A stretch of DNA of 64,000 nucleotides from an uncultured Chloroflexia bacterium (GTDB taxonomy: Bacteria; Chloroflexota; Anaerolineae; JAAYZQ01): assembly GCA_963700285.1 (NCBI GenBank), contig CAVOXA010000001.1, forward strand, positions 768,001-832,000. The letters run 5' to 3'. Below are positions 28,949-47,623 of this stretch, piece after piece. The notes below the pieces were generated by a model. It ran no database searches, was not told the origin of the DNA, and saw nothing but the letters and a program-made list of their open reading frames with translations. The position numbers and the translations under genes were made by a program. Position 1 is the stretch's first letter. Every line of letters begins with the position of its first letter.

Positions 28949-29979
<1,031 letters not shown>

Positions 29980-30024: not shown

Positions 30025-32541
30025 ATGAAAGTACCCATAAGCTGGCTGAAGGACTATGTGGACATCACCGTGCCCCTGGAGGACCTGGCCGAGCGTTTGA
30101 CCCTGGCCGGGTCTGGAGGTGGCTGCCATCGAGCGTATCGGCGACTGGTGGGATCGGGAGAAGATCGTGGTGGGTGAGGTGCTGGAGGTTCGGCCTCATC
30201 CCAACGCCGACCGGCTGGTGCTGGTCGACGTGGACTATGGTGGGGGCGAGGTCGAGCAGTGCGTCACAGGCGCTCCCAATCTCTTTCCCTACAGAGGTGC
30301 TGGGCGGGTGAGCCTCAAGGTGGCCTTTGCCATGGAGGGCGCCGAGCTGTACGATGGCCACAAGGATGGTTTCGTCAAGACCCGCCTCAAGCGGACCAAG
30401 ATCCGGGGCGTTCCATCGCGGGCGATGGTCTGCTCGGAGAAGGAACTGGGTATCTCGGAGGAGCACGAGGGCATCATGTTCCTGCCGGACGATGCGCCGG
30501 TCGGGCAGCCGCTGGCCGACTATCTGGGCGACGCGGTCCTCGACCTGGACCTGACGCCCAATCTGGCCCGCTGTTTCAGCATGATCGGCGTGGCCCGCGA
30601 GGTCGCCGCGCTGACAGGCGTTGCGCTGCGCTATCCTGACACCGACTGGCAGGCCGATGGCCCGCCGGCCGTCGATGCTGGCTCGCGTCGAGATCGAGGA
30701 CCCCAGACCTGTGCGCTCGCTATATCGCCACCATCATCCGTGATGTGGAGATCGGCCCCTCGCCCCAGTGGATGCAGGACCGGGTACGCAGGGCTGGGAT
30801 GCGGCCCATCAGCAACATCGTCGATATCACCAACTATGTGATGCTAGAATGGGGCCAGCCGCTCCACGCCTTTGACTATGACAAACTTGCTGGCCCGAGC
30901 TGGAGGCGCCGTACCGACCATCATCGTCCGGCGCGCCAAGCCAGGCGAAGCCATGATGACCCTCGACGGCGTGGAGCGGACCTTTAACGAGGACACGCTG
31001 CTGATCTGCGATACGGCTGGGCCCATGGCCGTGGCGGGCGTAATGGGCGGCTTTGAGACCGAGATCGACGAGGAACACCGCAACATCCTGCTGGAGTCGG
31101 CCAACTTTGACTTTATCAGCATCCGGCGTACCACACAGGCACTGCAAGCTGCCCAGCGAGGCTAGCCTGCGCTTTGGCAAGGGGATTCACCCGGCGTTGT
31201 CCGAACCAGCGGCACGGCGGGCCAGTGAGTTGATGCGCGTTCTGGCCGGCGGAATCATTGCCCAGGGCATGGTCGATGCCTATCCGGCTCCACCGGAACC
31301 AGTGGTCATCGATCTGACTGCGGCTGAGGTCGAGCGCAATCTGGGTATCCCCTTGAATGTCGAGGAGATCGCGGCCATCTTGCGAGTCACTGGAGTTCCA
31401 CTGCGAACCGGTGGGGGACGAGAGCCTGCGTGTCACGGTGCCCGATCATCGCTTGGACTGCACGTATCCGGCAGATCTCATCGAGGAGGTTGCGCGGATC
31501 TATGGCTACGATCGCATCCCGGTGACCGAGATGGCTGACCGGCTTCCGCCGCAGCGGTCCAATCGCAACCTGGATCTGGAGGAGGAGGTTCGCGACGTGC
31601 TGGTAGGCTGCGGCTTGCAGGAGACAGTTACCTATTCTCTCACCAGCCTGACCCGGGAGGCGGCCCTCGACCCGGCCATTGCTGTTGAGCATCTGCCAAC
31701 CTGAGACCTATGTTGCCCTCGCCAACCCCATCACCCAGGAGCGGTCGGTGATGCGTCGTAGCCTTCTGCCCTACGGCTCTGGAGACAGCGGCCGCCAACC
31801 TGCGTTTCCGAGAACGGCGTAGAGATCTTTGAGGTAGGCAAGGTCTTTTTGCAGGAGCCTGGCGAGGAACTGCCTGACGAACCGCCCGTCTGTCCATCGT
31901 GATGGCTGGTTTCCGTGACAGGCGTCATTGGCTTGCGAGTGGGGATTCAGGCGATGCGGCCCATGAATCGCGGCAGAGGCTCGACTTTTTTGACCTGAAG
32001 GGTGTCGTGGAGACCCTACTGGAACGGCTGCACCTGACGGAGGCGGTCTATCGAGCCGGTGGAACATCCGACCTTCCAGCCAGGTCGTACGGCTTGCCTG
32101 GTTGTCGGTGATGTAGAGATCGGGGTTTTGGGAGAGCTGCACCCTGCCGTGCGCGATGCCTTTGGCCTGCCGGACTGGCGCGTGGCTGCTGCTGAGCTGG
32201 ACCTGGAGGCATTGTTGGCCCAGGCACCCACCACTTGGCTGGTCGAGCCGATTTCGGCCTATCCTGCTGTGCTTCAAGACCTGGCTGTTGTGGTGGATGA
32301 TAAAGTGCCGGCTGCAGAGGTCCAGGATCTCATCACCAAGACCGGAGGCTTCTTGCTCAAGGACGTGCGGCTGTTTGACGTTTATCGAGGGGATCCCGTG
32401 CCGGCAGGGAAAAAGAGCCTGGCCTATGCGCTCACCTTTCAGGCGCCCGACAAGACGCTGCGCGATGCGGTTGTGGCCAAACAGGTGAAGCATATCGCCG
32501 ACCGGTTGAGGCAGGAGTTGGGGGCCGAGCTGCGCGGATAG
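30025..32541 (+). CDS. pheT: Phenylalanine-tRNA ligase beta subunit (multiple frameshifts)
   Basis: [77 protein letters not shown]. Confidence 0.95.
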
Positions 32542-32607: not shown

Positions 32608-32947
32608 GTACCATTGCCCCCAGCCCTAGCCTGAAACTCGAGTGACAGGGCACATGTCCCCTAACAGAATGGGTGGTGCGGAATGGGCGAGACGGGCAGC
32701 TTGTCTGCTGGAAACGACGTGCCTTGTGTGCCTCTGCTGGACGCCGTGTATGTCGCGGCCTGAACGAGAACCTCAAGACCATATGTAGGCCCGGGACGAC
32801 CATCGTTCTGATCATGAAGGCGAACAGCGCGTATCAGATCGCCACACTTTGCATACCGGACCATCGATGGTATAATGGAATGCACACGATCTCGCACAGA
32901 GGCGTTGACGACAGCCTCCCAGATTGGCGCAAGTGGACAGGCGATTT

Positions 32948-35359
32948 ATGCCAGACATCATCAACCCCTACATACCGGGCCAGCCCGTAGATGATCCAGA
33001 CCTCTTTTTCGGGCGTCGAGACTTGTTCATCTGGATCCGGGAGCACCTGATCAAAGGACGGCGTGTCTTTGGTATTTCTGGCGCCCATCGCATCGGCAAG
33101 ACGTCGCTGATCCGGCAGCTGCCAGTCCACCTGCCGGATGAGTTTCTGACGGTGGGGGTCAGGTTTTCCGAAAAAGAAGCTTCCCGGCTGGACTGGCTGC
33201 TTTGGCAAGTGGCGGATGCCATCGCCACACAGGCGGTTGGACAGCTCCCGGCAGAATACAGTCGGCCTGACTGGGCTGACTTTGAGGGACATCCAGACCG
33301 GTTGCTGACAAAATTCTGGCCGCGGGTGCGGACAGCTTTGGGGGACCGGTGTCTGGTGCTCATGATTGACGATCTGGATTCCCTGGCCCGGGAACAGTCC
33401 AACCTCCTGGACCCCTTTCTTTCTGTGATGGCGAACTGGCGCGAGCAGGACGAGGGATTGGCGCTGGTCATGACCACCGCGCCAACCTGGCAGGAGACGC
33501 TGTCGCGCAAGCATCCCCGGTTGTTTGGAGGCTCTCTCACGTCCGTGTTGGGTACATTGTCCAGTGAGGATGCATCCCGCCTGATCACCTGGCCGGTGGA
33601 TGGCGTGCTCACCTACGACTATGGCGTTCCGAGACGGATGGTCGAGACCACCTCCGGCCAGCCGTACTACTTGCAACTGCTCTGTTTCGAGGTGTTTAAT
33701 CGCTGTGCAACAGCCGGGTGGGTCAACCAGCGGGATCTAGATTTCGTAGTCGAAGAGCTTGTCAGCCGGGATATTCCCGAGTTTCGTCAGGTCTGGGACG
33801 AGTCCTCCCCGCAGGAGCAGGCTGTCCTGGCTGTCCTGGCCTCTCTCCGTGGGGCACGGGGCATCGCCACCGAGCAGGAGGTTGGCAAGGCTCTATCCAA
33901 GCTTGGGACACGCGTGGATTCCGCCCAGATCACCCTCGCAATGGAGAGCCTGGCGGCTCGGGACATCTTGGAACGTCTTGGCGCTTTGAGCTACCGCTTC
34001 CGCGTGGCACTGCTTCGCGATTGGTTGGGCGAGCGGATCGATCTTCAGGAGGTCGTGCGCGACACGCGCTGGCGTGCATCACAGCGCGACAGGTCTCTGG
34101 GTGATCGGCCTGTGCAGATGCTGCACGTCGGAAAGGAACAGAAGCAGGGGCCAGCCGTGCCCAGCCAGGAAACCGAGAGTGTTGCGGTCAAGGCTTCTCC
34201 CGATGCCGCCAAAGATGAAGGGCAGGATCCTGTCAGGAGTCGTCGCTGGCTATGGCTCATCTTGGCTGCGGCCTTGATTCTGGTATTGGTGATCCTGGGC
34301 CGCATGCTATCTTCCCCAATACCTACTGAGCCACTGTCCGCGGTGGTTTCTCTTGTCTCGCCGACGACGCGTCTGACGGTGCCAATCGCAACTCGAACCC
34401 TAGTACCAGAGGCGGCTGCCGGGTCACCCAGCACTGTGGCGCCGAGCGATGTGCCGCTGCTTGAACCGACGCCGACGCCCGCACCAACGCAGCCCCCGGC
34501 GCCCACTCTGTCGCCAACGCCTACACCTCCAAGGGTAGTTGCTCGATCTGTGCCATCCATCGCCTACCAGTCGCGAAGGCCGCAGGATGGGCGCTGGTTT
34601 GTCTATATCATGGATAGCAATGGGGGCAATCGAACCCTGGTCAGCGAAGGGCAGGACGGTTTTTTGTCTGCGCCTTCCTGGTCGCCCGATGGCTCCCGGT
34701 TTGCCCTGGTCTCCGACGCCGACGGTGCATCGGACATCTGGGTGATAGGCATTGACGGCAGTGATCCGGTCAACCTGACGCAGCATGAGGCCAAGGACCA
34801 CTCGCCAGCGTGGTCGCCAGATGGGGAATGGATCGCCTTTGCGTCGGTTCGGGATTCACCGTACTGGGAACTGTACGTGATGCGGGTCGACGGATCGGAT
34901 CTACAGAGGCTAACTTGGTGGGAGGATGCTTCGGATCTGTGGCCCACCTGGTCTCCTGATGGAACCCGTCTGGCCTTTGCCTCCAAACGGGATGGCAACT
35001 GGGAGATCTATAGCATGGACCGCGACGGTTCCAATCTGATACGGCTGACCCACCATCCCGACGATGATACAAACCCCGCTTGGTCTCCGGATGGCAGCCG
35101 CATCGCCTTCGAGAGTACCCGGGAAGGGTATGCCGAGATCTATGTCGTGCCGGTCGGTGGCGGCGCGCCGGTCAACGTGAGTCAGCTATCCTGGGCCACC
35201 GACCTGGGTCCATCCTGGTCACCTGACGGTGGGCGTATGGTCTTCTACTCGGATCGCGATGGGGATTGGGACATCTATGTCATGGCTTCCGATGGTTCTG
35301 ACGTGGTCAAGCTCACTGGAGATACCAGCAATGATCAAGTTCCTGCCTGGCGGCCCTGA
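32948..35359 (+). CDS. STAND/AAA-type NTPase + winged helix + TM + Pro/Thr linker + TolB-like (PD40) beta-propeller
   Basis: NPYIPGQPV..FFGR, Walker A GAHRIGKTS, Walker B LVLMIDD, TSGQPYYLQ, TM WLWLILAAALILVLVIL, five WSPDG repeats plus terminal PAWRP; TGnTATAAT at 32868-32876. Confidence 0.85.
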   Translation: MPDIINPYIPGQPVDDPDLFFGRRDLFIWIREHLIKGRRVFGISGAHRIGKTSLIRQLPVHLPDEFLTVGVRFSEKEASRLDWLLWQVADAIATQAVGQLPAEYSRPDWADFEGHPDRLLTKFWPRVRTALGDRCLVLMIDDLDSLAREQSNLLDPFLSVMANWREQDEGLALVMTTAPTWQETLSRKHPRLFGGSLTSVLGTLSSEDASRLITWPVDGVLTYDYGVPRRMVETTSGQPYYLQLLCFEVFNRCATAGWVNQRDLDFVVEELVSRDIPEFRQVWDESSPQEQAVLAVLASLRGARGIATEQEVGKALSKLGTRVDSAQITLAMESLAARDILERLGALSYRFRVALLRDWLGERIDLQEVVRDTRWRASQRDRSLGDRPVQMLHVGKEQKQGPAVPSQETESVAVKASPDAAKDEGQDPVRSRRWLWLILAAALILVLVILGRMLSSPIPTEPLSAVVSLVSPTTRLTVPIATRTLVPEAAAGSPSTVAPSDVPLLEPTPTPAPTQPPAPTLSPTPTPPRVVARSVPSIAYQSRRPQDGRWFVYIMDSNGGNRTLVSEGQDGFLSAPSWSPDGSRFALVSDADGASDIWVIGIDGSDPVNLTQHEAKDHSPAWSPDGEWIAFASVRDSPYWELYVMRVDGSDLQRLTWWEDASDLWPTWSPDGTRLAFASKRDGNWEIYSMDRDGSNLIRLTHHPDDDTNPAWSPDGSRIAFESTREGYAEIYVVPVGGGAPVNVSQLSWATDLGPSWSPDGGRMVFYSDRDGDWDIYVMASDGSDVVKLTGDTSNDQVPAWRP

Positions 35360-35434: not shown

Positions 35435-36370
35435 TCATGGGTCTGGGTCCTCGGTAGTATCCTGGCACCAGCCGTTTTCCAGCCCAGCAGCATGATAGGC
35501 ATCCAGAGCGGATTCGTACTCTTCCGAAGTGATCTTGCGGCCAAGGACAGAGTCCCCAACCGCCCGGTGAGCCGGGAAGTACTGGTCCATGAGGCTGATA
35601 TGAACGCTGGGTGAGAGGCTTTCTGCAACCCAGCGAAGCACATCATCTGTGCCTGCTTGCCCGGAGGGTAGAACCAGATGGCGGATGATCATCCCGCGCT
35701 GGGCCAGCCCCATCTCATCCAACACCAGCTCTGCCCCCACCTGGCGATATATCTCTTGCAACGCTGCACGATTGTATTCGATGTAATCCGAGAACCCGGA
35801 GAGCTTCTTGGCTATGTGGTTGTTGGCATATTTGGCATCGGGCAGCCAGATATCGACAATGTTCTCCAGTAGATGCAATACCTCGGACCGTTCGTAGCCG
35901 CTGGTGTTATAGACCAAGGGCAGTCGCAATCCACCTTCGATAGCGGCCGGCAGAGCAGCCATCATCTGAGGCATAAAGTGGGTGGGGGTCACAAAGTTGA
36001 TATTGTGTGCCCCTTTGCGCTGCAGTTCCAGCATGATCTCGGCCAGCCGCTCAATGCTCACACGATCGCCGTAGCCGAGCTGGCTGATGGGATAGTTTTG
36101 GCAGAATTGGCATCGCCCGGTGCATCCAGAGAAAAAGATGGTACCTGAACCGTGCGTACCGCTGATAGGTGGTTCTTCCCACGCGTGCAGATTCCAGCTT
36201 GAGAGTTTCGCTTGGTCGTCCATACGGCATACTCCCCGTTCACCGTCTAGGCGGTCTACGCCACAGAGGTGAGGACAGAGCAGGCATGGAGACAGAAAGC
36301 TCCAAGCTGCCTCAATGCGTTGGGCCAGCTCCCCGCTATGATAAAGCGCCAGATAACCAGGTTCAATCAC
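35435..36370 (-). CDS. Radical SAM protein, PflX-like
   Basis: CLLCPHLCGVDR, EEPPISG..GSGTIFFSGCTGRCQFCQN, NINFVTPTH, IIRHLVLP; GTG start after GGAGG. Confidence 0.88.
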   Translation of the reverse strand: MIEPGYLALYHSGELAQRIEAAWSFLSPCLLCPHLCGVDRLDGERGVCRMDDQAKLSSWNLHAWEEPPISGTHGSGTIFFSGCTGRCQFCQNYPISQLGYGDRVSIERLAEIMLELQRKGAHNINFVTPTHFMPQMMAALPAAIEGGLRLPLVYNTSGYERSEVLHLLENIVDIWLPDAKYANNHIAKKLSGFSDYIEYNRAALQEIYRQVGAELVLDEMGLAQRGMIIRHLVLPSGQAGTDDVLRWVAESLSPSVHISLMDQYFPAHRAVGDSVLGRKITSEEYESALDAYHAAGLENGWCQDTTEDPDP

Positions 36371-36464
36371 AATTCGGCCAGAAGCCTCCATCCACAAGTT
36401 CACAGACCTCAGGCTCTGTCTGCTGACGATCCTCGTTCTGCGCTCGGGCAGAACGTGGAAAGCC

Positions 36465-36493
36465 ATTATAGGGCTGACCGTCGAAGGTGTCAA
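36465..36493 (-). promoter_or_regulatory. Consensus sigma70 promoter for the radical SAM gene
   Basis: Minus strand TTGACA-17 bp-TATAAT. Confidence 0.85.
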
Positions 36494-36699
36494 CTGAACT
36501 TGATCTACCCACCCAGCCCTCCGGGTTCGCACAAGTGTAGCCATAGCCTATGACTTTTGTATTGAGGGCGGTTCACCCAGGCCAACACGCCAATGGCCGT
36601 ACTTGGCTACGGAGAATACCCCCCGAGATTGGGGTCCACAGGAATGAACCGCGCATCTCTGGCTAAATGCACCTGGCAAAGCTTGGGGCAGATGTGTCA

Positions 36700-36728
36700 T
36701 TGACCGATGTTTGGAACTGTGCTATCAT
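36700..36728 (+). promoter_or_regulatory. Putative sigma70 promoter upstream of the ECF sigma gene
   Basis: TTGACC-17 bp-TATCAT with extended TG. Confidence 0.6.
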
Positions 36729-36919
36729 GTGGCGACTATCCTCTGGCGCGGGCCATGTTTTTCGGTGCTTCTAGGATGTTTTTGGGGACAGCGGGTTGGT
36801 ACGAAGGGGGCTCTCTGGCAAGCGCCACCAGGGGAGATAGAGCGCGGCCCGGCCTGAAGCAAAAACGAGAATGCTTGCTTCAGGAGCCGTATCCTTTCGG
36901 AGAGCTAACCGGTATAACA

Positions 36920-37582
36920 GTGGATGTCGATGATGCTCTGAGTGTACCTGAGGTGTCGGTATCTCAGGAACCGCATAGCAAAGTGGGTCACTTTGAGCTA
37001 GCCAAGCGCAAGGATAGGCAGGTCTCGTCTGGAGTTCGCCAGGGGGAAGGCCGTCTGGTCAACCAGGCTAGGCGGGGTGACAATCGGGCGTTCAGCGAGC
37101 TATATCGACGCCATGTTGACATGATCTATCGCTATGCCTATGCTAGGGTAAGGGATGCGACGATAGCTGAGGACCTGACGGCTCAGGTTTTTCTCAAGGC
37201 CTTTGAGGGTTTGCCGAACTATGAACCCCGGGGGGCGCCATTTTCGGCCTGGTTGTATCGCATAGCCCATGCCAGAATCGTTGATTACTGGCGCCAACAG
37301 CAGCGCCGCCAAGAGGTGGGCTTGCTAGAGAGTTTGCCGGCAACAGATCCTCAGCCCGAGGATATCGTTCTCGCCAAATCAGAGTGGAAAGCCGCCGTCG
37401 ATTTGCTGGCTCAATTGACAGACGATCAGCGCGATGTGATCATACTGCGGTTCATCGAGGAAATGAGTTTGGCAGAGGTAGCTGAAACACTGGACAAGAC
37501 GGTCGGTGCGGTTAAAGCGTTGCAGCATCGCGCTCTGGCATCGCTGGCGCGCATACAGAGAGCACAGGTTTCTGCTCTGTGA
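36920..37582 (+). CDS. ECF sigma-70 factor, BldN-like (start codon uncertain)
   Basis: AFSELYRRHVDMIYRY, AEDLTAQVFLKA, FSAWLYRIAH, region 4 EVAETLDKTVGAVKALQHRA. Confidence 0.9.
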   Translation: MDVDDALSVPEVSVSQEPHSKVGHFELAKRKDRQVSSGVRQGEGRLVNQARRGDNRAFSELYRRHVDMIYRYAYARVRDATIAEDLTAQVFLKAFEGLPNYEPRGAPFSAWLYRIAHARIVDYWRQQQRRQEVGLLESLPATDPQPEDIVLAKSEWKAAVDLLAQLTDDQRDVIILRFIEEMSLAEVAETLDKTVGAVKALQHRALASLARIQRAQVSAL

Positions 37583-40500
37583 CCGAGATGGCTGAGGATT
37601 TCACCTCGATCCTGGAACAATGCCTGGGTCAGATCGGTGCTGGCAAGTCGACGATCTGGAACTGCCTGGCCCGGTATCCAGAACTGGCTGGTGAACTGGA
37701 ACCCCTGCTGCTAGCGGCCGAACAGATGTGGCTAGTTCCCAAACCTGTATTGTCCTCCGAGGCCAGGGCCAGGATCGATGTACAGGTGTTTAGTGTAGCC
37801 GGTGCCAGCGAGCAACGCCGGCCCGCCGTAGGCCAGCCCCCAAGCGCTGGCCGAAAGAGGGGCTGGACATCCGTCTGGCGGTGGGCTGCCACGGGACTGG
37901 CTTTCCTCGCCGTCTTTTTTCTGTCATTTACGTTCGTCGCGGATGCCGTAGGCAAGACCCTGCCAGGTTCTCCCCTTCACCCTGTCAAACTGGCTGCAGA
38001 GAATACTCGTCTGTGGCTGGCTCCCTCCCAGAACAAGCCGAAACTGCAACTGGAGTTTGCTAGGCGCCGTTTGGAGGAGGTGACAGCGCTAACCGAGCTT
38101 GGGGATGTGGATGCCTCGATCGTGAATGCTATGACCGAGGAGACAGAAGCTGCTCTCATGGGTCTTGCGTCACTGCCTCCGGATGCGGCCGTGCCGCTTA
38201 TGGGTGACATGGTGGCATTGATTTCTGACCAGGATCAGACCTTGTCCCGCATGATTGAGGGTTCGCCGGCCGGATTGCGGGATCAAGTCGCAACAGCGTT
38301 GGAGTTGAATGCGGCGCAAGCGGCTCGTTCACGCTCACTGGTTGGTTCGTTACCCATGCCACCTTCTATCGCCGTGCTCGCGACGGCCAACCTGGACAGT
38401 GTACCTGAGCCAGAAGGAGAGGTGGAGTATACGGTTTCGGTGACCAATGATGGAGCGGAGCGAGTCACGGTAATATCCCTGTTGAGTGACATCCGTGGAG
38501 ACCTTGATGGCCAGGGCACCTGCTCTTTGCCCCCGGAAGGCATCTTGCTGAGCCCTGACGAATCATATGTCTGTACCTTTGGCGCCGTCGTCGCAGGCAA
38601 CGCCGATCAAGCGCAAACTGATACGGTGACAGCGGTGGTCATGGACGATGAGGGCTTTGAGGCCAGGGTATCCACAAGCGCCACGGTGCTGGTCGGCGAT
38701 GTGGCGCCTACGATTGGGATTTACAGGACCGCGAACCCCGACAGCCTGCCTGAGCCTGGGGGCGTCGTTCAATTCAAGGTGCGGGTGACCAACGTTGGGC
38801 TTGAAACTGTCATCCTAACCGGTCTCGAGGACGGCGAGCGCGGTGATCTGAACGGTTGGGGTACTTGTTCGCTGCCCCCGGAGGGAATCACGATCAACCC
38901 TGGTGGGGCCTACGAGTGTACCTTCAGCGCCAAGGTTTCCGGCAACGCTGCTACGAAAAAACCCAATATCGTGACCGCCATAGCGGCCGATGATGAGGGC
39001 AACACAGTCCAGTCTTCGGCAAGCGCTGTGGTGTCTTTCACTGACGTACTTCCGGTGGTTGCCGTGAGCAAGGCGGTGCTCCCCAGCAGTGTGCCAGAGC
39101 CCGGGGGTACGGCGCAGTTTACTGTGCGGGTGACCAATGTGGGAGTCGAGGATGTCCGCCTTGATGCGCTGGTGGATGACGTTCATGGAGATCTGCATGG
39201 GAGGGGAACCTGTTCCCTGGCACCTGGTGAGGTGGTCATCACTCCTGCGGAAACCTACGAGTGCTCATTTGCTGCGATGGTGGCCGGCAACGCTGGGGAA
39301 AGCAAGATGGCTGTAGTCACAGCCATTGTATCCGACGATGAGGGAAACAGAACCGGCGCTTCCGATAGCGCAAGTGTGACTATCGCTGATGCTCTTCCGG
39401 AGATAGATGTCAGCAGAACGGCAGAACCGGCCCGAGTGCCTGAACCAGGGGGCAAGGTAGAGTTCACGGTACGCGTTGTCAATCGGGGGCCTGAAAGCCT
39501 CGAACTTGTATCATTGGTAGATGATGCGCTCGGTGATCTGAACGGGAAGGGAACCTGTTCTGTGCTGCCCGGTGAGACGATTATTGAGCCTGGTGGGTTC
39601 TACCAGTGCAGCTTTGTCTCCCACGTTTCTGGGAATGCAGATGACGCGTGGACTGATGTAGTGAGTGCCGTAGCTTTGGACGATGAGAGCAACTGGGCGA
39701 AGGCTGCGGGCAGCGTTACAGTGGTTGTCACCGATGTGGCACCCCTGATCAGCGTGCGAAAGACGGCGAGGCCCAGCAGTGTGCCCGAGCCCGGGGGAGC
39801 GGTGGAATTTACCGTGAGTGTGACCAATCAAGGCGTGGAGGATGTCAGTCTCCTTTCGCTCCTGGATGACAACCACGGTGACCTGCATGGGCTAGGTACT
39901 TGTTCCCTGCGGCCGGACGAGATGAGAGTCAGCCCCGGTGATACCTACACGTGCCGCTTCAGTACTGTGGTCTCTGGCAAGCCAGCGGAGAGCTGGACCG
40001 ATACTGTCACGGCTGTCGCATCGGATGACGAGGGGAACAGGGCAAGGGCAGCTGCTGCTACGAGGGTGACCATCAGAGACGTGCTGCCGGCGATAGCTGT
40101 CAGAAAGACGGCAATGCCAAATCGTGTGCCTGAACCAGGAGGCAGTGTCAAGTTCACGGTACGCGTTACCAACAATGGGGCTGAGCAAGTCGTCCTGGAT
40201 GCGCTGGTAGATGATGCTCATGGCAACCTGAGTGGCCAGGGCACCTGTTCGGTGCCGCCTAGTAAGGTTATGATCGATCCTGGCACCGCCTACGATTGTT
40301 CCTATTCTGTTGTTGTTTCTGGCAATGCTGGGGATGTGGAGACGAGCGCGGTGACCGCTGCGGTGTCGGATGATGAGGGCAATAGGGCCAAGGCTGTGGG
40401 CAGTACTGCGGTGGCCACAATCGACGTCCCACCGCAGATTGACGTGAACCTGGTGGCAAAGCCGGACACGGCACCCGAGTCGGGGGGGAAGATTCAGCTT

Positions 40501-42366
40501 AGGGTGCGCGTCACCAACGAGAGCTTTGAGGCAATCCATATCAAGTCTTTGATGGCCGCATCTCGCGGTGATCTGAATGGGCGGGGTAGTTGTTCTGTGC
40601 CTGAGGGGGGGATCCTATTAGGTCCCCAGCGCTCGGATGGCCCAGGTGAGTCCTACGAATGCACCTTCAGTGCAACGGTGGCTGGCAATGCGGCAGAGAT
40701 CCTTACCGAGACGATGTACGTTGTGGCTGTGGACGACGAAGGAAACGAGGTCAAGGCTGGAGCCAGTGATACTGTGACCCTCACTGATGTGCTGCCGGCG
40801 ATCAGGGCCAGTCAGACGGTCGAACCCGGCAGTGTGCCGGAGCCTGGGGGCAAGGTGACGTTCTCCCTGGTTGTGAGCAATGAAGGAACTGAAGAGATTA
40901 CTCTAGATGCGCTGGTGGGCGATGTCCTCGGCGATTTAAACGGACAGGGTACCTGTTCTGTGCCGCGAACAGGGGTAGCGATTCGGCCGGGACGATCCTA
41001 CACCTGTGAGGTTCAGGCTAGCGTCTCGGGAAATGCTAGAGAGAGCAAGGCCAGCACGGTGACGGCGGTCGCCTCGGACAATGAGGGCAACGAGGCCCAA
41101 GCTTTGACAGACGCCACGGTGACCTTCACCGATGTATTGCCATCGCTCCTTGTGAGCAAGGTGGCGGAGCAAAGCAGCGTGCCGGAGCCAGGCGGAGGTA
41201 TAGCTTTCACGGTGCGCATCAGCAACGCGGGAGCTGAGGCCTTTACCCTCAATTCCGTGGTAGATGACCTACATGGTGACTTGAATGGGCAGGGTACCTG
41301 CTTTGTGCCCCAAGAGGGGATATCGCTCCAGGGCGGCGAGTCCTATGTCTGTAGCTTCCAGTCCGAAATCTGGGGCAACGCTGGGGTGACCGAGACCGGT
41401 ACTGTGACAGCCGTGGCCTCGGATGATGAGGGCAACAAGGTGAGTATTTCGGACAGTGCTACGGTGGCGATCTCGGATGTGCTGCCGGCGGTTGGAGCGA
41501 GCATAACGGCGAGTCCCAGCAAGCTGCCAGAGCCGGGAGGAGTTGTGCTGTACTCTGTCAGGATCGCGAACCAAGGGATCGAAGAGCTTTCCCTCGATTC
41601 GTTGGTGGACGATGTCCATGGGAATCTGCTCGGGCAGGGTACTTGTTCAGTACCACCTGAAGGCATAACACTTGGACCAGGGAGTTCCTATGAATGCAGC
41701 TTCCAGGCCGATGTCAGAGGCAACGCTGGGCAGAATAGTACCAATCTTGTTTCGGCCGTGGCCTCCGACGATGAAGGCAACGAAGGACGAGCGGCGGCGG
41801 GTGTCACTGTGGTCATCACTGATGTAGTCCCGGCGATCGGAATCGACGTGTTAGCGAGCTCCGGCAACGTGGTGGCGCCAGGTGGGGAAGTTGAGTTCTC
41901 GGTACGCGTCAGTAACCTGGGCGCTGAGGCTGTGACTCTGGCCAGAATGGTCGATGACGTCTATGGGGACATGAATGGCCTGGGCTCATGCTCCCTTGTA
42001 GCAGGAGAAACGACGATTGGCCCTGGCGGATCGTACGAGTGCACATTTGCCGCTGAGGTTTCTGGAAATGTTGGGGACAGTGTGGTCCACACCGTGACGA
42101 TTGTAGCTTTCGATGATGAGGGCAATGACGTTGCGGCCGCTGCCGACGTGACTGTCACCATCATCGACAATCCCGAGTCCTCAGCTGCCGTCATCTGCCA
42201 ACCAGGCGCCGGTGCGGATGTGGCATGCCCGAACTGGGCGCCGTTGGCGCCGGTGGCTGCCAAGAATAACAGTCTGCTCGCGCCAGTACACCCTTGGCTC
42301 CGGGGCATTCGCATCTCCGGTTCTGTCGATCATCCTGGCACCCCACTTGTAGGAATTCCCACCTAG
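37579..42366 (+). CDS. Giant membrane anti-sigma factor: N-terminal sigma-binding region, TM, DUF5667, 11 Ig-like repeats
   Basis: GTGA overlap with the ECF gene; LEQCL...CLARYPELAGELEPLL; TM WAATGLAFLAVFFLSFTFV; DUF5667 motif LPGSPLHPVKLAAE...ARRRLEE; repeats follow. Confidence 0.82.
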   Translation: MTEMAEDFTSILEQCLGQIGAGKSTIWNCLARYPELAGELEPLLLAAEQMWLVPKPVLSSEARARIDVQVFSVAGASEQRRPAVGQPPSAGRKRGWTSVWRWAATGLAFLAVFFLSFTFVADAVGKTLPGSPLHPVKLAAENTRLWLAPSQNKPKLQLEFARRRLEEVTALTELGDVDASIVNAMTEETEAALMGLASLPPDAAVPLMGDMVALISDQDQTLSRMIEGSPAGLRDQVATALELNAAQAARSRSLVGSLPMPPSIAVLATANLDSVPEPEGEVEYTVSVTNDGAERVTVISLLSDIRGDLDGQGTCSLPPEGILLSPDESYVCTFGAVVAGNADQAQTDTVTAVVMDDEGFEARVSTSATVLVGDVAPTIGIYRTANPDSLPEPGGVVQFKVRVTNVGLETVILTGLEDGERGDLNGWGTCSLPPEGITINPGGAYECTFSAKVSGNAATKKPNIVTAIAADDEGNTVQSSASAVVSFTDVLPVVAVSKAVLPSSVPEPGGTAQFTVRVTNVGVEDVRLDALVDDVHGDLHGRGTCSLAPGEVVITPAETYECSFAAMVAGNAGESKMAVVTAIVSDDEGNRTGASDSASVTIADALPEIDVSRTAEPARVPEPGGKVEFTVRVVNRGPESLELVSLVDDALGDLNGKGTCSVLPGETIIEPGGFYQCSFVSHVSGNADDAWTDVVSAVALDDESNWAKAAGSVTVVVTDVAPLISVRKTARPSSVPEPGGAVEFTVSVTNQGVEDVSLLSLLDDNHGDLHGLGTCSLRPDEMRVSPGDTYTCRFSTVVSGKPAESWTDTVTAVASDDEGNRARAAAATRVTIRDVLPAIAVRKTAMPNRVPEPGGSVKFTVRVTNNGAEQVVLDALVDDAHGNLSGQGTCSVPPSKVMIDPGTAYDCSYSVVVSGNAGDVETSAVTAAVSDDEGNRAKAVGSTAVATIDVPPQIDVNLVAKPDTAPESGGKIQLRVRVTNESFEAIHIKSLMAASRGDLNGRGSCSVPEGGILLGPQRSDGPGESYECTFSATVAGNAAEILTETMYVVAVDDEGNEVKAGASDTVTLTDVLPAIRASQTVEPGSVPEPGGKVTFSLVVSNEGTEEITLDALVGDVLGDLNGQGTCSVPRTGVAIRPGRSYTCEVQASVSGNARESKASTVTAVASDNEGNEAQALTDATVTFTDVLPSLLVSKVAEQSSVPEPGGGIAFTVRISNAGAEAFTLNSVVDDLHGDLNGQGTCFVPQEGISLQGGESYVCSFQSEIWGNAGVTETGTVTAVASDDEGNKVSISDSATVAISDVLPAVGASITASPSKLPEPGGVVLYSVRIANQGIEELSLDSLVDDVHGNLLGQGTCSVPPEGITLGPGSSYECSFQADVRGNAGQNSTNLVSAVASDDEGNEGRAAAGVTVVITDVVPAIGIDVLASSGNVVAPGGEVEFSVRVSNLGAEAVTLARMVDDVYGDMNGLGSCSLVAGETTIGPGGSYECTFAAEVSGNVGDSVVHTVTIVAFDDEGNDVAAAADVTVTIIDNPESSAAVICQPGAGADVACPNWAPLAPVAAKNNSLLAPVHPWLRGIRISGSVDHPGTPLVGIPT
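38362..42168 (+). repeat. 11 tandem ~345-bp (115-aa) domain repeats
   Basis: Consensus P.I.V...A.P.SVPEPGG.V.FTV.V.N.G.E...L..L.DD..GDL.G.GTC...PG..Y.C.F...V.GN......V.A.A.DDEGN; units 2 and 3 start at 38701 and 39046. Confidence 0.92.
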
Positions 42367-42548
42367 GACAGACTGGACTGTTTGGGGATTGCGATCCCAC
42401 GGTGCCGGATGCATGCGTGGGGTGCGTTGCCGATGTTTTTCCGAGAGGGATTGGGCGGGGCGGTGAAGCGGGTGGTCCAGCAAAGAGAACGTTTCGATCT
42501 ATGCCATCTATTAGGTTTTCTTAGGCTGGGAAAAGGAGGGGCAACTGA

Positions 42549-44072
42549 ATGTCTATTCGCGACTATGTTGAGATCCTGTTGCGACGCAAGTGGATAATCA
42601 TTATCACCTTCGCATTGGTGATTGCTATCACAATCGTGGCTACTCTGCTAACGGAACCGATGTACCGCGCGTCCACCATGATGCGAGTGCTGTCGGTCAG
42701 TGGGGGCTCGTCGGGTGACTGGATCGCGTACGACACCAAACAGGTTGAGCGATTGATGAGTACCTATGCCGAGTTTGCCACCAGCCGGCCCGTGTTGCAG
42801 GAACTCAGTCAAAGACTTGAGTTGGAGGAATGGCCTCAGATTTCTGTGGAGATTCTCAACAACACCGAGTTGATGCAAATCACTGCCGAAGCGAGAGATC
42901 CGGTAGTAGCCAGGGACACTGCCAATGCTCTGGCGGAGGTCATGATTGCACAAAGCAGGGAGTTGTATACCGGTGGTGGCAAGACAGCCCAAGAGATACT
43001 TGTCGAACAGTTGGAACAGGTCAAGGGCGAGCTGGATGGAGTTTGGACTGAGTATGAGGCCCTGATCGCCCAATCTCCTGAAGCAGCGGATCAGATTGCA
43101 GCCGCCAGTCGGGCGATCGAGTTGAAGGAAGGTACGTATGCTACGCTGCTCGATCAATATGAGAGAAATCGTGTCCGAGAGGCTGTGCTGGCCAACACGC
43201 TGTCGATCATTGAACCAGCGATAGCACCCCGCAATCCAGCCAAGCCACGCAGTGAGCTGAATATTGCCCTGGGTTTGGTCATAGGCCTTGGCGGAGGTCT
43301 GGCCTTGGCTTTCTTGATAGAGAGCCTGGATACCACGCTCTATTCTGTAGAGCAGATCAAGAGGTCCACCTCATTGGCCATTCTGGGTAAGGTGCCTGCC
43401 GTGGGTCGGCAGGCTCAGAATTCACTCTTCAACGGGTCTTCTCCGCAAGGAGAGGCATTCCGTCGTCTGCGTACCAACTTGCTTACACTCGACTACGATT
43501 CCCCTCTTCGGTCCTTGTTGATCACGAGTGCGGAACCGAAAGAGGGCAAGTCGACGATAGTGTCCAATCTGGCCTTCGCCGTAGCTCAGTCAGGACGTCA
43601 GGTCGTCACGGTGGATGCTCACTTGCGACTACCAACGCTCCACAAGGTATTCGGTCTGTCCAATAGGGTTGGTCTGAGCAGCGTGCTTGAAGACAAGGCC
43701 TCGCTGGAGGATGCGATGCAGGAGACCGGAATCGCGGGCGTCCACGTGTTGACGAGTGGCCCTCTGCCGCCCAACCCCGCCGAGCTGCTAAGTTCTCCAC
43801 AGATGACGGCACTCATCGAGCGATTGACCGGACAGTATGACATGCTCTTGCTGGATACACCCTCTATCCTGGCGGTTACCGATGCAGCAGCGCTGGCCAG
43901 AAGCGCGGACGGCGTCCTGTTGATCGTGGAGCGGGCACGGGCACGCCAGGAAAGCGTGCGCGCGGCGACTCAACAGTTGGCAGACGTCAGGGCCAACCCG
44001 ATTGGCATCGTCGTGAATCGCTCGCAGCCGGACAGTGCCTACGACTACTACAGCCGGGTACCGACAGGTTGA
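42549..44072 (+). CDS. wzc: Polysaccharide co-polymerase/tyrosine kinase (fused CpsC-CpsD/Wzc)
   Basis: Wzz N-terminus, PAIAPRNPAKP, EAFRRLRTNL, Walker A EPKEGKS, LLDTP, C-terminal AYDYY. Confidence 0.9.
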   Translation: MSIRDYVEILLRRKWIIIITFALVIAITIVATLLTEPMYRASTMMRVLSVSGGSSGDWIAYDTKQVERLMSTYAEFATSRPVLQELSQRLELEEWPQISVEILNNTELMQITAEARDPVVARDTANALAEVMIAQSRELYTGGGKTAQEILVEQLEQVKGELDGVWTEYEALIAQSPEAADQIAAASRAIELKEGTYATLLDQYERNRVREAVLANTLSIIEPAIAPRNPAKPRSELNIALGLVIGLGGGLALAFLIESLDTTLYSVEQIKRSTSLAILGKVPAVGRQAQNSLFNGSSPQGEAFRRLRTNLLTLDYDSPLRSLLITSAEPKEGKSTIVSNLAFAVAQSGRQVVTVDAHLRLPTLHKVFGLSNRVGLSSVLEDKASLEDAMQETGIAGVHVLTSGPLPPNPAELLSSPQMTALIERLTGQYDMLLLDTPSILAVTDAAALARSADGVLLIVERARARQESVRAATQQLADVRANPIGIVVNRSQPDSAYDYYSRVPTG

Positions 44073-44160
44073 AGGGATCGTGGCTGTCAGCTACGACTGT
44101 CAGCCGCTTGCAGAGAATCGAGATTGGTGATTACACTCATTGGGATGCGGCGTTGAGACC

Positions 44161-45000
44161 ATGCTAGTGGATTTTGCGATAATTGGGGCACAGAAGTGTG
44201 GCACGACCAGCTTGGCCGCCCAACTGGCGGAGCACCCAGGCATCTGTTTCTGTGAGATCAAGGAACCTGGATACTTTCACAGGGTAGAGGATTGGCAGTC
44301 TGGTCTTGAAGCCTATCATCGGCTGTACGCGCCAGAAGCAGGCCAAATCTGCGGTGAAGCATCTACTATGTATACATTTCTTCCCGAGTGGCAGGGAACC
44401 CATTCCAGACTCTTTGCGTATAACCCAAACCTGAAGTTGATATATGTCATGCGGCAGCCCGTCGAGCGAGTCATATCCAACTACTCGCACGACCTGGTAA
44501 GAGGTTTTGTCAAAGCCCCGCCAGAGACAGCAGTTTTTGAGGATCCCACCTACATCAATCGCAGCCGGTACACTGTTCAGATGCGGCCTTACCTGGAGCT
44601 CTTCCCGCGAGAGAACATCCTACTGTTGGTCTTCGAAGAGTATGTCGCCAATCAACCCCAGACACTGCAGCAGATTGCTGCCTTTCTTGGTATCTCATCA
44701 GGTGCCTTTACCGATACGGGTTCAATGGACAAGCACAAGTCGGTTGGCCAGACCTATCTCAAGAACTCTGCGATACGGGCATTGGTCAGGTCCAGGGCTT
44801 TCCAGGCAGTACGACCGCGTCTGTCGGCATCCATCCGGCGGCCGATTCGGCGCCGCCTGGCGAATGAACTGTACGAAAAGCCACGCTTCTCACCGTCACT
44901 TAGGCAAGTGATCTGGCGTTTTGTAGAAGACGATGTTCATGGAGTGGAGGAGCTTCTAGGACGGCGCCTCGATGTGTGGCGCCTCGGGGAGACCGGATGA
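44161..45000 (+). CDS. PAPS-dependent sulfotransferase, heparan sulfate N/3-O-ST-like class
   Basis: 5'-PSB IIGAQKCGTTSL, KEPGYF, GEASTMY, 3'-PB MRQPVERVISNY. Confidence 0.88.
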   Translation: MLVDFAIIGAQKCGTTSLAAQLAEHPGICFCEIKEPGYFHRVEDWQSGLEAYHRLYAPEAGQICGEASTMYTFLPEWQGTHSRLFAYNPNLKLIYVMRQPVERVISNYSHDLVRGFVKAPPETAVFEDPTYINRSRYTVQMRPYLELFPRENILLLVFEEYVANQPQTLQQIAAFLGISSGAFTDTGSMDKHKSVGQTYLKNSAIRALVRSRAFQAVRPRLSASIRRPIRRRLANELYEKPRFSPSLRQVIWRFVEDDVHGVEELLGRRLDVWRLGETG

Positions 45001-46358
45001 AGCAGCTAGCCTATCCCAGAAGGGTCTTGAGTTTCCGCTTCGAGCAATCGCGCCTGAGCTCGGCCCGTGTCCTTCCGCTCATTGACTTTATGCTCATTGT
45101 TGCCTTTCTGCTGGATCTCTTTACCTCCTATCTCACTTGGAAGGGTTACTTGCCCGAGGTTGTGACTTCGATTTCCCAGCTCTTGGTGGCCGCAGCGGTT
45201 GCGTTCGCGTATACGCGGATGATGATGCTCAACCGCATCCCTGCTGGTGTGTGGGCGCTTCTGGGAGTCTCAGCCATCGGATTCACCGTAGCGCTCTTTC
45301 GGGGGCAGGGCCTCGTTGCGACGCTTTGGGGCTGGTGGAACCTGTTCAAATACCCGATGCTGGGGATTTATGCCTATCTTCGTCTGCGCTGGCCAGACGA
45401 TTTCGCACAAACGCTGACGAGAGTCTGCTTTGGAATAGTGGCATTTGAGACGGTCTTTCAGATCTTCCAATATGTAACAGGCGAGCCCATCGGGGACAAC
45501 TTGGCTGGGACATTCGGTTGGCACGGCGTTAACCATATCCTCTTTCTTACCTGTCTTGCCTTGAGCCTGGCCCTGGGCCTTTGGGTGGCTGAAGGACGGT
45601 GGCGGCCACTGTTGGCAATCTTGGTCCTGGGTGCCGTGGCAAATGTGTTGGCCGAAAATAAGATCTTTCCAGTTGCTGCCCTGGCCATGTCTGCGATTGC
45701 CATCGCTATGTACGTCCTCCGGCGCGGTCAACTATCAAGGCTGCTACTATTCGGCGTTTTGGTAGTGGCCGGTCTCTGGTTATACTCAGCCGGATACAAC
45801 AGTTTCGTGCCGGGCGCCGATAGAGAGCCCCTTGAGAGGCTCTTTGTGGAGGAAGATGCCCGCGAGAACTATTTGAATAAGGTGAAGCGATCAGAGACGG
45901 CGGAGCAACAAACCTACAATCTTGGTCGAAATGTGGCCGTGGAGTATGCTCTGAGTACCCTAAGTGGGGACGCCGTGCTCATGGGGTTTGGTTTCGGCTT
46001 GGGAGCTCGGAGCCAGAGTGGCACGCTGGGTGTGTCAGGTGCCGCGCTCGAGCAGGACAGTTTTGATCGGGGCAGCCAGCTTGTGGCGATTTTGCAGGAG
46101 ATGGGCCTCTTTGGTCTGGTCATGGTTACGGGCTTCACAATGTGGGTGTCGGTCAGGCTGTGGCTCGATGCCAGGCGCAACCCAGAGTCGCCGGCAACCA
46201 GCTTGCGATACGGCCTGCTTTTCTTCTCGCTATGCTGGCCAGTTTGGCTGTGGTACAAGAACCCATTGGGGGCTGATGTGGCCATGATGCTCTACTGGGT
46301 TGGGCTGGGCTATGTACTGAGTGAGCCTCACCTGGAACACCTGAGCGATCGACTGTAG
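44997..46358 (+). CDS. Multi-pass membrane protein, probable Wzy polymerase/O-antigen ligase family
   Basis: ~10-12 hydrophobic segments, GFGFGLG and LQEMGLFGL flanking a large loop; ATGA coupling. Confidence 0.7.
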   Translation: MKQLAYPRRVLSFRFEQSRLSSARVLPLIDFMLIVAFLLDLFTSYLTWKGYLPEVVTSISQLLVAAAVAFAYTRMMMLNRIPAGVWALLGVSAIGFTVALFRGQGLVATLWGWWNLFKYPMLGIYAYLRLRWPDDFAQTLTRVCFGIVAFETVFQIFQYVTGEPIGDNLAGTFGWHGVNHILFLTCLALSLALGLWVAEGRWRPLLAILVLGAVANVLAENKIFPVAALAMSAIAIAMYVLRRGQLSRLLLFGVLVVAGLWLYSAGYNSFVPGADREPLERLFVEEDARENYLNKVKRSETAEQQTYNLGRNVAVEYALSTLSGDAVLMGFGFGLGARSQSGTLGVSGAALEQDSFDRGSQLVAILQEMGLFGLVMVTGFTMWVSVRLWLDARRNPESPATSLRYGLLFFSLCWPVWLWYKNPLGADVAMMLYWVGLGYVLSEPHLEHLSDRL

Positions 46359-46385
46359 TTGGTTCAGGTTGGTCGGAGTGGTAGA

Positions 46386-47579
46386 TTGAGCGATGCTGTG
46401 AGGGATAGAGGGCTACCATCTGTTTTGTGGGTATCGGCCAGGCCCATGGCCTCTGCCCTGGATTCTGCAACCTGGCTGGAGACGACCCGTGAGCTGCGTC
46501 AGCAGGGCTGGCCCATCACGCTGGTCGGTGAAGGCCCTGCTGGCGAGCACTGTATTCAGGGCGTCACAGTGCATTGCCTGCCAAAGTCCCGGGCGTATGG
46601 CTTGGGCTATTGCCTCTTTCACTTGAGGCTATGGCGATTCTTGTTCCAGCAGAGGGCCAATTACGATGCCGTTCTCTTCCATCAGAAGTCGGCGCCATGG
46701 GTTCTACCTCTTCGCTTGGTGCGGAGGCTTGGGGCTTGGAGGCGCCCGCTGTTGACAATGGATACACGGGATGTTGTAGCGGCAGGCACAAGCCTGAGAA
46801 ACCGGCTGCGCCGGCTCTACTTCCGCTGCGCACATTGGCTTGCCAATCAATGGGCAGATGGTCAGATGGCGATCACTCCGCGCATGGCCCAGCTAGTGGG
46901 CATCCCATCCGCCCAACTGTGGGGTACTTGGCCATCAGGCGTCGACCTGGAGCGATTTCGGCCCGCCCAGGCTGGACGGCAGTGGCCTGGCCCGGGGCGT
47001 TCGATCCATTTGATGTACATTGGCAAGTTTGTGCGAGATCGCAACCTCACGCTTTTGTGCCGGGCTGTCGAGCGCGCAAACCTGGAGGGCATGGCCTTTG
47101 CTCTGTCTCTTATCGGCGATGGACCTGAGCGGCAAGCTCTGGACGAGGCAGCGAGGAGTGCTGAGGGAGCCATTCACGTTGGATCGCCGGTGCCCCATGA
47201 CCGGGTCCCTCAACTGTTGAAGCAGGTTCACGTTGGAGTGACATCGCTACCATCGTCAATCGATAGAAAGTTTGAGGCGTCCAGCCCGATCAAGCTGTTT
47301 GAGTACATGGCTGCTGGGCTGCCAGTGATGGCTACGGACAATGCCTGCCATACAGATGTGGTTGGTGAGGGTACCTATGCGTTTTGGGTCCGGGAAGCCA
47401 GCGAGGAAGGAATGCTGGCGACTCTCCGTCTGGTGGCTCGGTCCCAGAAGAGCCTGGGTGACAAAGGTGCCGAAGCGGCTGCTGCTGCCCAGGCATGGAC
47501 GTGGGAGGAAGCTGGCAGGAAACTTGGACTGGCTCTGGAGCGCGGGCTACTGGGGCCTGCCGGTCGGCCGCCCGCATAG
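46386..47579 (+). CDS. Glycosyltransferase family 4
   Basis: PSGVDLERF, SSPIKLFEYMAAGLPV. Confidence 0.85.
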   Translation: MSDAVRDRGLPSVLWVSARPMASALDSATWLETTRELRQQGWPITLVGEGPAGEHCIQGVTVHCLPKSRAYGLGYCLFHLRLWRFLFQQRANYDAVLFHQKSAPWVLPLRLVRRLGAWRRPLLTMDTRDVVAAGTSLRNRLRRLYFRCAHWLANQWADGQMAITPRMAQLVGIPSAQLWGTWPSGVDLERFRPAQAGRQWPGPGRSIHLMYIGKFVRDRNLTLLCRAVERANLEGMAFALSLIGDGPERQALDEAARSAEGAIHVGSPVPHDRVPQLLKQVHVGVTSLPSSIDRKFEASSPIKLFEYMAAGLPVMATDNACHTDVVGEGTYAFWVREASEEGMLATLRLVARSQKSLGDKGAEAAAAAQAWTWEEAGRKLGLALERGLLGPAGRPPA

Positions 47580-47623
47580 TCATGTTTGGGTCCAGCAGAA
47601 GCGCTTTTATCCCGAGGGTAGGT

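Follow-up and report, generated by a model that had tools for sequence, protein, structure and literature searches.

A BldN-like sigma factor whose RsbN-like partner carries an adhesin-type stalk: a possible lever for sensing the cell surface in a Chloroflexota bacterium

What could an anti-sigma factor sense with a long rod of adhesin domains on its outer side, and on behalf of which genes? The question is raised by a locus on contig CAVOXA010000001.1 of the genome of an uncultured Chloroflexia bacterium (G000), in a stretch of 64,000 nucleotides (nt) that we call the window and within which all coordinates are given. Here the gene for a BldN-like extracytoplasmic function (ECF) sigma factor overlaps that for a one-pass membrane protein of 1595 amino acids (aa), most of which is made up of immunoglobulin (Ig)-like repeats. 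Our preferred reading, to which we give a probability of roughly 0.45, is that an RsbN-type anti-sigma factor has been joined to an adhesin stalk, and that this rod is the lever through which the cell surface is sensed. The operon comprises the following elements.

36700-36728, plus strand: predicted basal promoter of the sigma/anti-sigma operon, of the housekeeping sigma70 type (TTGACC-17-TATCAT, extended -10 TG)
36888-36915, plus strand: predicted autoregulatory ECF promoter, CGTATC-N16-CGGTAT, with a GTG start 4 nt further on
36920-37582, plus strand: BldN-like ECF sigma factor, 220 aa with an N-terminal extension of ~44 aa (Sigma70_r2, Sigma70_r4)
37579-37815, plus strand: RsbN-like cytoplasmic anti-sigma domain, aa 1-79, with predicted helices at 2-20, 26-32, 34-51 and 60-79
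37882-37944, plus strand: lone transmembrane helix, ~aa 102-122 (hydropathy; helix 97-124 in the model)
37957-38349, plus strand: extracytoplasmic DUF5667 helical bundle, aa 127-257, common to the whole family (Pfam, AlphaFold2 [AF2] model, alignment)
38356-42168, plus strand: 11 tandem DUF7507/DUF11 (CLIPPER_2/CLIPPER) Ig-like stalk domains (Pfam)
42172-42366, plus strand: C-terminal tail of 64 aa with two Cys, in which no membrane or sortase anchor was found

The sigma factor and its predicted clamp

Among the 113 NCBIfam families hit, the sigma factor was matched best by TIGR02952, that of BldN (152.7 bits, below the cut-off of 206.45), and its best match in the PDB was BldN itself (6dxo_A). 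A profile of the anti-sigma N-terminus matched RsbN in that same PDB entry (6dxo_D), in register over residues 43-78 (E 0.022), with 9/36 identities between the window protein and RsbN over the aligned stretch. At the RsbN contact positions, L43 is kept, hydrophobic residues stand at A46, M50, and V70, and R67 is replaced by Asp. In RsbN, R67 forms a salt bridge with D20 of BldN (PMC6101532); the equivalent residues are charge-swapped here, with Asp at 67 and Arg in the sigma factor. Across 36 sigma/anti-sigma pairs, this was the most charge-anticorrelated of 288 eligible column pairs (r -0.66, which, the sequences being related, is no significance test).

A model of the sigma/anti-sigma complex scored 0.74, while none of three controls scored above 0.00. 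Contact agreement was at least 86% and the partner predicted local distance difference test (pLDDT) score at least 77, a mark that was reached by 116 of 157 solved pairs and 2 of 215 mismatched ones. In this model, residues 43, 46, and 50 pack on sigma4 and residues 62-75 on sigma2, as in RsbN-BldN, and the arrangement that defines class III anti-sigma domains, with helices 1-2 on sigma4 and the long helix 3 between sigma2 and sigma4, is seen in the model only. AF2 placed one additional short helix, 26-32, in the domain. A single-sequence PDB search with the N-terminal 264 aa gave no match at E <=10, nor did Foldseek with a 262-aa N-terminal model at E <=0.001 (RsbN of 6DXO included). Taken together, the NCBIfam and PDB matches, the profile, the charge swap, and the complex model support the BldN/RsbN-like pair proposed in an earlier note made from the sequence alone, and, to judge from the model, the N-terminus very likely grips sigma2 and sigma4 in the manner of RsbN.

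The anti-sigma open reading frame (ORF; 37579-42366) begins with a GTG that overlaps the TGA of the sigma gene (GTGA, 37579-37582), as the note had described. Of 37 loci, which are the best-scoring ones rather than a random sample, 35 had a sigma gene whose end lay at most 150 nt from where the anti-sigma gene starts (12 were dropped, namely 11 duplicates and one locus without an anti-sigma gene). Four loci with the stalk and with flanking DNA could be compared, the one in the window and those designated G263, G286, and L050. The sigma start, which the note had put at 36888, had to be moved, as that position is the first base of the promoter -35 element and holds no start codon. The ATG at 36707, which would give the longest ORF, was rejected since it falls between the conserved -35 and -10 elements of the housekeeping promoter. 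The likely start is the GTG at 36920, giving a predicted product of 220 aa; the frame of the extension, from this GTG to the core, is open in 4/4 of these loci. In sister loci an ATG lies 5 nt after the same promoter motif, which indicates leaderless starts and a 220-aa sigma factor, and the sigma mRNA from the autoregulatory promoter is likely leaderless. A five-codon ORF in the +1 frame (36924-36941) overlaps the sigma start in all four loci and may be a by-product of the protein frame.

Behind the anti-sigma domain, basic residues (RKR/R) precede the strong hydrophobic segment at ~aa 102-122 and so point to an N-in topology, while the weaker hydrophobic windows at aa 482-502 and 1404-1429 lie in beta-strand repeat junctions. 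DUF5667 was matched over aa 127-197 (33.7 bits; Pfam cut-off, 27); the domain was not found in 14 control genomes searched.

Make-up and origin of the stalk

The 11 repeats are of 115 aa each (repeat 7 is of 121 aa), with 38-57% mutual identity and two Cys per repeat, and scored 169.3 bits against DUF7507 (cut-off, 27) and 78.3 bits against DUF11 (cut-off, 24.6) in Pfam. Hydropathy, Pfam, and repeat alignment thus recovered the layout given in the earlier note, of one transmembrane segment, DUF5667, and 11 Cys-paired repeats. Repeat net charge is ~-10 in the window protein and ranges from -5 to -12. At the usual length of an Ig domain, the rod would be ~45-50 nm long. The note had not recognized the architecture as characterized; this still holds for the combination with an anti-sigma factor, which was not met in our literature search, but not for the repeats, which belong to described families. 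DUF7507 and DUF11 have been renamed CLIPPER_2 and CLIPPER and form the stalks of fibrillar adhesins, often cross-linked by Lys-Asn isopeptide bonds (PMC12617251). Along with that paper, the Pfam families, a model of two repeats, and its structural matches support an adhesin-type extracellular rod as the note had envisaged. The model is all-beta, at low confidence (pLDDT 60), in keeping with the Ig-like beta-sandwich of 7-9 strands expected of CLIPPER domains.

The module that the stalk extends is common. The first 264 aa of the anti-sigma factor were matched in 285 of 401 genomes sampled from the class (a count that includes G000 and G346), and a profile search with the N-terminal module returned 3178 clusters at E <=1e-30. 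The top 150 representatives had a median length of 384 aa and the repeat was found in only 2; of their tails of at least 60 aa, 83/120 were low in hydrophobic residues. DUF5666 or DUF4382 domains were found on some other members (16 long proteins scanned). The stalk form itself was present in 3/23 genomes of the family, a search at the level of the order having taken in no genomes beyond these 23. It was also present in 8 database proteins, and 3 of them match loci studied here. In a midpoint-rooted tree of 42 rows, from which P0067 was left out, the 8 stalk-form rows formed one group (support 99/99) whose sister was four short-tailed proteins from the same family; the stalk, by this tree, arose once. 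Two surface proteins of this genome that have C-terminal hydrophobic anchors carry the same repeat and may plausibly be its source. A metagenome scan gave one locus and a genome scan 12, two of them stalk-form loci already in the set; the N-terminal module was not found in the plasmid collection searched, and ESM Atlas matches scored <0.9 and are leads only.

Two variations were seen elsewhere in the family. In some members (P0008, P0010, P0011, P0070, and others), the cytoplasmic anti-sigma domain is present in up to ~six copies before the membrane helix, as if built for holding several sigma molecules. At L053 (G408:C68, 5713-9264), two anti-sigma genes lie behind one sigma gene, and the second of them has a promoter motif to itself.

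This distribution bears on the main rival to our reading, in which the pair is nothing unusual for its family, sensing is done by the DUF5667 bundle common to all members, and the stalk, fused once from an adhesin gene, is a passive spacer or surface structure. The family manages without a stalk in nearly all of the representatives above, no tip domain is present, and DUF11 and DUF7507 are described as stalk formers and not as ligand binders (PMC12617251). Yet 11-12 repeats are retained in 9/9 stalk-form proteins, down to ~48% identity, and the Cys pair is kept in 100/100 of their repeats (11/11 in the window protein). Stalk length and fold are therefore under selection, although this would be so for a structural role as much as for a sensing one. 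We regard a passive stalk as possible but rather unlikely.

The cross-links have fared differently from the Cys pairs. At triad positions that were inferred from sequence spacing and not from structure, the strict Lys/Asp/Asn triad was found in 0/11 window repeats and in 4/100 across the 9 stalk-form proteins, Lys/Asp/Asp in 1/11 window repeats, and the relaxed Lys/Asp/Asp-or-Asn triad in 20/100 across the 9 proteins, while Lys/Asp/Asp was found in 7/7 repeats of the genome's anchored surface proteins. The isopeptide triad is not universal among CLIPPER_2/CLIPPER domains, and Lys-Asp bonds are not typical for this fold class (PMC12617251). The predicted triad thus seems to have been largely lost in the window stalk. 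Retention of every Cys pair while the triad eroded would suit a redox sensor, in which reduction unfolds the repeats and triggers sigma release; however, a similar pair aligns in the anchored surface proteins, and since disulfides accompany about one-third of CLIPPER domains (PMC12617251), the pairs are most simply structural. We consider redox sensing very improbable.

A different possibility is that the repeats bind a ligand many times over, either the cell's own polysaccharide or divalent cations, as in an RbmA-like protein, so that occupancy and not force sets release. RbmA was the top Foldseek match of two repeats (E 5.5e-8, TM-score 0.36) and the top match of the repeats in a PDB sequence-profile search (E 0.006, over the first 40 positions), and the repeats are linked to wzc (see below). 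The acidic DDEGN-like hairpin pointed out in the earlier note is present in 11/11 window repeats and in 74/88 repeats overall; D-x-x-G-N hairpins can bind calcium. On the other hand, the model is of low confidence, and in structural alignment RbmA (Z 10.5, root mean square deviation [rmsd] 3.3, 104 residues aligned) tied with transglutaminase and ApaG domains (Z 10-11), with many Ig-like folds about equal (Z 10-11.5, rmsd 2-3.5, ~100 aligned). Acidic repeats would also suit a likely sulfated, anionic polymer poorly unless cations bridge the two. Ligand binding as the switch is hence a minor prospect to us, improbable though less so than redox sensing. The first Asp of the 'DD..GDL' loop falls at the expected position of the CLIPPER catalytic Asp, going by spacing, and the CLIPPER structure 9IFR was not among the matches listed in the profile or fold searches of the repeats.

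Promoters, candidate targets, and the polysaccharide cluster

The ECF promoter CGTATC-N16-CGGTAT was found exactly in 4/4 stalk-form loci, and a looser form lay upstream of 36/42 family sigma genes (shuffle mean, 6.5; maximum, 14; 44 regions, 2 dropped as mis-cut). The motif of BldN itself is CGTAAC-N16-CGTTGA (PMC2375139). Sigma region 2.4 carries Ala-Arg in 17/17 sigma factors with a CGGTA -10 element and in 0/16 with CGTT or CCGTA (3/36 without a call); of the latter 16, 15 have Asn, like BldN. G000 encodes three more BldN-like sigma factors (C1:447580-448873, C9:232666-234616, and C10:96458-97657), two with DUF5667 anti-sigma factors and CGTTA-type self-promoters and one with a short partner. 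Because these three are of the Asn type, the CGGTAT sites in G000 most likely belong to the sigma factor studied here, which, when free, very probably reads CGTATC-N16-CGGTAT. The housekeeping promoter further upstream is a 10/12 match, weak if taken alone (4 sites in the scan versus 3.0 expected), whose -35 and -10 blocks are conserved in 4/4 stalk-form loci.

With a matrix built from 14 sites in other genomes, G000 gave 12 matches scoring 20 bits or more, compared to 0, 2, and 2 in shuffles, and the self-promoter at 36888 was the top match genome-wide; the exact pattern gave 19 sites in five relatives versus 0 for a control pattern. Of the sites kept between G000 and G263, one lies before an O-antigen-ligase gene, behind which come acyltransferase and Wzt genes, and one before a hexapeptide-transferase/oxidoreductase operon; another, kept in both G263 and G286, precedes the gene for a 484-aa membrane protein and then that for a DUF11-like secreted protein. 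These three operons are probably fired by the free sigma factor. In G129, sites were found before genes for a subtilase, a lamin-tail protein, TetR, and a PAS/GAF protein.

Three further sites are recorded as observations. A strong one kept in G263 (G000:C22:109357-110700) precedes an ORF of ~96 aa, for which the G263 copy gave no Pfam match, and then a tandem repeat array. The operon behind site C1:1341636 (L084, G000:C1:1330000-1343000) runs into nonribosomal peptide synthetase genes (AMP-binding, PP-binding). The L074 gene behind a G408 site looked TadE-like by eye and was not counted, as it had no Pfam match.

The earlier note had further suggested that the sigma factor perhaps controls the adjacent polysaccharide genes. 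These and their surroundings are arranged as follows.

35435-36544, minus strand: radical SAM gene in divergent orientation, which G263, G286, and L050 likewise have upstream
42367-42548, plus strand: spacer of 182 nt between the anti-sigma gene and wzc (motif, promoter, and terminator scans)
42549-44072, plus strand: wzc polysaccharide co-polymerase/tyrosine autokinase, first gene of the cluster (Wzz, GNVR, and TIGR01007 above cut-off)
44140-55341, plus strand: co-directional polysaccharide genes, the cluster extending further than 55341

The cluster holds genes for two sulfotransferases (44140-45000 and 48754-49728), which suggest a sulfated polysaccharide, a polymerase-like membrane protein without a Pfam match, GT4 enzymes, a UDP-glucose/GDP-mannose dehydrogenase, a hexapeptide acyltransferase, and a DegT aminotransferase. 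The physical linkage stands: wzc starts at 42549, 182 nt downstream as stated in the note, and is the next gene in 4/4 stalk-form loci. Direct control was not borne out, as the sigma motif occurs in the window only before the sigma gene itself; apart from the self-promoter, no copy above 10 bits was found in the window or at the G263, G286, and L050 loci. With no sigma site at wzc or in the cluster, control could come only by read-through. The scanned spacer contained no terminator-like site and no sigma70-type promoter and is therefore open to it, and we put the chances that the cluster is reached in this way, and in this way only, at about even.

Slightly less probable, and independent of how the stalk senses, is that the wzc cluster is an inherited neighbor with its own promoter, outside the regulon. 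The missing motif at wzc in all four loci favors this, and the radical SAM gene upstream is equally syntenic, so that linkage to wzc may be no more than inheritance. Two short-tailed sister pairs (G129 and G401) lie directly before Tad/Flp pilus genes, and the pilus gene product RcpC was not found in 3/3 stalk-form genomes (81-90% complete) and was found in G407 and G408; the contrast between Tad/Flp and wzc is one evolutionary event and not a statistical trend. Against an inherited neighbor, no sigma70-type promoter or terminator-like site turned up in the spacer, sites precede two other sugar/polysaccharide operons and are kept in G263, and the wzc cluster and Tad/Flp genes are both surface-structure operons. 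Of the words searched, fractions of 0.10 and 0.05 were present in two RNA runs, for which DNA carry-over is possible; short, low-depth contigs touched the sigma gene, repeats, wzc, and two cluster genes and none bridged the spacer. They were not used as evidence.

Other features of the region were noted in passing. A GGATGCA block in a predicted hairpin (42385-42430) is kept in the spacers of G000, G263, and L050, as GATGCA in G286; a GGCGGT-like stretch beyond it presumably recalls ops elements. A perfect TTGACA-17-TATAAT promoter at 36465-36493, minus strand, sits within the longest radical SAM ORF, and the true start of that gene is therefore probably further downstream. Genes at 26797-32541, which we take from their sequence to be ftsH-, pheS-, and pheT-like, are split across frames, suggesting assembly indels in the genome, while the 1595-aa ORF is intact. 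An 811-aa protein (32924-35359), syntenic in G263 and L050, combines an AAA-type ATPase, a membrane helix, a Pro/Thr linker, and a TolB-like propeller.

How the stalk might act, and comparison with known systems

In the reading that we prefer, the overlapping sigma and anti-sigma genes are likely made from the housekeeping promoter, and the RsbN-type N-terminus would bind and silence the sigma factor. Outside the membrane, the eleven Ig domains, replacing the usual Pro/Thr tail, likely form an unanchored rod that would thread the wall and polysaccharide coat. Pulling on the rod, or loss of the coat around it, could then unsettle the DUF5667 bundle or expose it to proteolysis, freeing the sigma factor to amplify its own operon and fire surface operons elsewhere. 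Release by pull or coat loss, taken by analogy from RsgI, has in our view a little under an even chance of being correct. In evolutionary terms, a class III (RsbN-type) lineage may have captured an adhesin stalk once, shed most isopeptides, and kept the Cys pairs, yielding a rod-shaped force or coat sensor, with a Tad-pilus-linked circuit giving way to a circuit by which a sulfated polysaccharide coat is both monitored and rebuilt; this fuller scenario we hold to be doubtful.

Several points weigh against this reading. Its account of release and transcription draws on sequence, models, and analogy. The RsbN match is weak, ranking fourth of 11 behind three unrelated helical proteins; D67 and its partner Arg are absent from the confident contacts of the complex model, whose score may be owed to 6DXO having been memorized; and since the sequences are related, a single clade split or two may lie behind both the covariation and the correlation of -10 element with sigma2.4. 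In the AF2 model of the DUF5667 bundle (aa 127-257, mean pLDDT 88), aa 134-257 are predicted to be all-helical at high confidence, with no SEAL-like sheet. A tip domain or anchor was found in none of the 9 stalk-form proteins, whose C-terminal tails are of 3-67 aa, and of merely 3-18 aa in 4/9. The 12 strong G000 sites include two copies of a single duplicated sequence, which resembles a housekeeping -10 element, and several others precede genes without a surface role. The motif-free surroundings of wzc and the conserved radical SAM gene, described above, count on the same side.

Each component of this system is known; our literature search met neither their combination nor an occurrence beyond Actinobacteria nor the promoter code. 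In full text (subscription journals lying outside coverage), that search returned no paper with DUF5667 and none with five of six terms on Ig-repeat anti-sigma factors, and for Chloroflexota with ECF or RsbN it returned no title on this subject. The data indicate that RsbN-like proteins form a very large family beyond Actinobacteria, that their promoter can be predicted, and that their ectodomains are swappable; in a single lineage, the short, low-complexity tail of most relatives gives way to a rigid adhesin stalk. The self-promoter offers a ready reporter, and the natural domain swaps offer a way to ask what the outer part of an anti-sigma factor senses. The stalk form likely couples cell-surface state to surface-building genes and so would give a handle on the signal for a BldN/RsbN-type switch, and its candidate targets are a first predicted surface regulon for these Chloroflexota. 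If the fuller evolutionary scenario is true, the protein, with its readable promoter code, would be a chimera made by nature from which it could be seen that such switches take their signal from the ectodomain.

The closest known system is BldN-RsbN of Streptomyces (ECF121, class III anti-sigma domain, PDB 6DXO), which shares with the window pair the best sigma match, a one-pass anti-sigma factor directly downstream, the weak in-register match over RsbN 43-78 with the same predicted binding mode, the form of the motif with its 16-nt spacer, a sigma N-terminal extension, and surface-related targets. It differs in that the salt bridge is reversed here, the -10 element is CGGTAT instead of CGTTGA, autoregulation is apparent whereas BldN is described as not autoregulated, the ectodomain is of ~1470 aa compared to 272 aa, heme-synthesis genes are lacking from the context, and the host is a member of the Chloroflexota. 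RsbN was reported only from Streptomyces and the signal freeing BldN from it was described as unknown (PMC6101532), and ECF121 was 100% actinobacterial (PMC7826278). By the definition of ECF121 in the supplement of PMC7826278, the window pair has the one-pass anti-sigma factor at +1 with a conserved N-terminus and, at ~44 aa, a sigma extension within the ~30-130 aa range; it lacks the actinobacterial host and the conserved heme-synthesis context, its flanking genes being radical SAM and wzc and its closest relatives titled Chloroflexota, Chloroflexia, or Anaerolineae. The pair would thus work like BldN-RsbN, yet it falls short of the TIGR02952 cut-off and of two ECF121 criteria. The proper ECF group may be described in that same paper, which mentions Chloroflexi.

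SigI-RsgI of Bacillus and Clostridium likewise has a membrane anti-sigma factor that combines a juxtamembrane domain and a long spacer with distal domains that vary (bioRxiv 10.1101/2023.06.27.546760), and the pulling model proposed for RsgI (bioRxiv 10.1101/2023.06.27.546760; bioRxiv 10.64898/2026.05.12.724683) is the template for the mechanism outlined here. It belongs, however, to another sigma family with another anti-sigma domain, and RsgI has an autocleaving beta-sheet SEAL domain and a terminal carbohydrate-binding domain, whereas the window protein has a predicted helical bundle in place of SEAL and no tip. The RsgI analogy drawn in the earlier note accordingly survives as a functional likeness only, since the juxtamembrane domain is predicted to be all-helical.

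With CLIPPER/CLIPPER_2 fibrillar adhesins the protein shares Pfam matches above cut-off, tandem Ig-like beta-sandwiches, and paired Cys (PMC12617251). Those adhesins have a signal peptide, an adhesion domain, and a C-terminal sorting domain; here, the stalk is attached by its N-terminus to a signaling protein, begins behind an anti-sigma domain, and has no adhesion tip, sorting signal, or anchor. RbmA of Vibrio cholerae is similar in its tandem beta-sandwich domains and its association with an exopolysaccharide matrix, but it is a two-domain matrix scaffold without an anti-sigma domain, and its Z-score was no better than those of other Ig-like folds.

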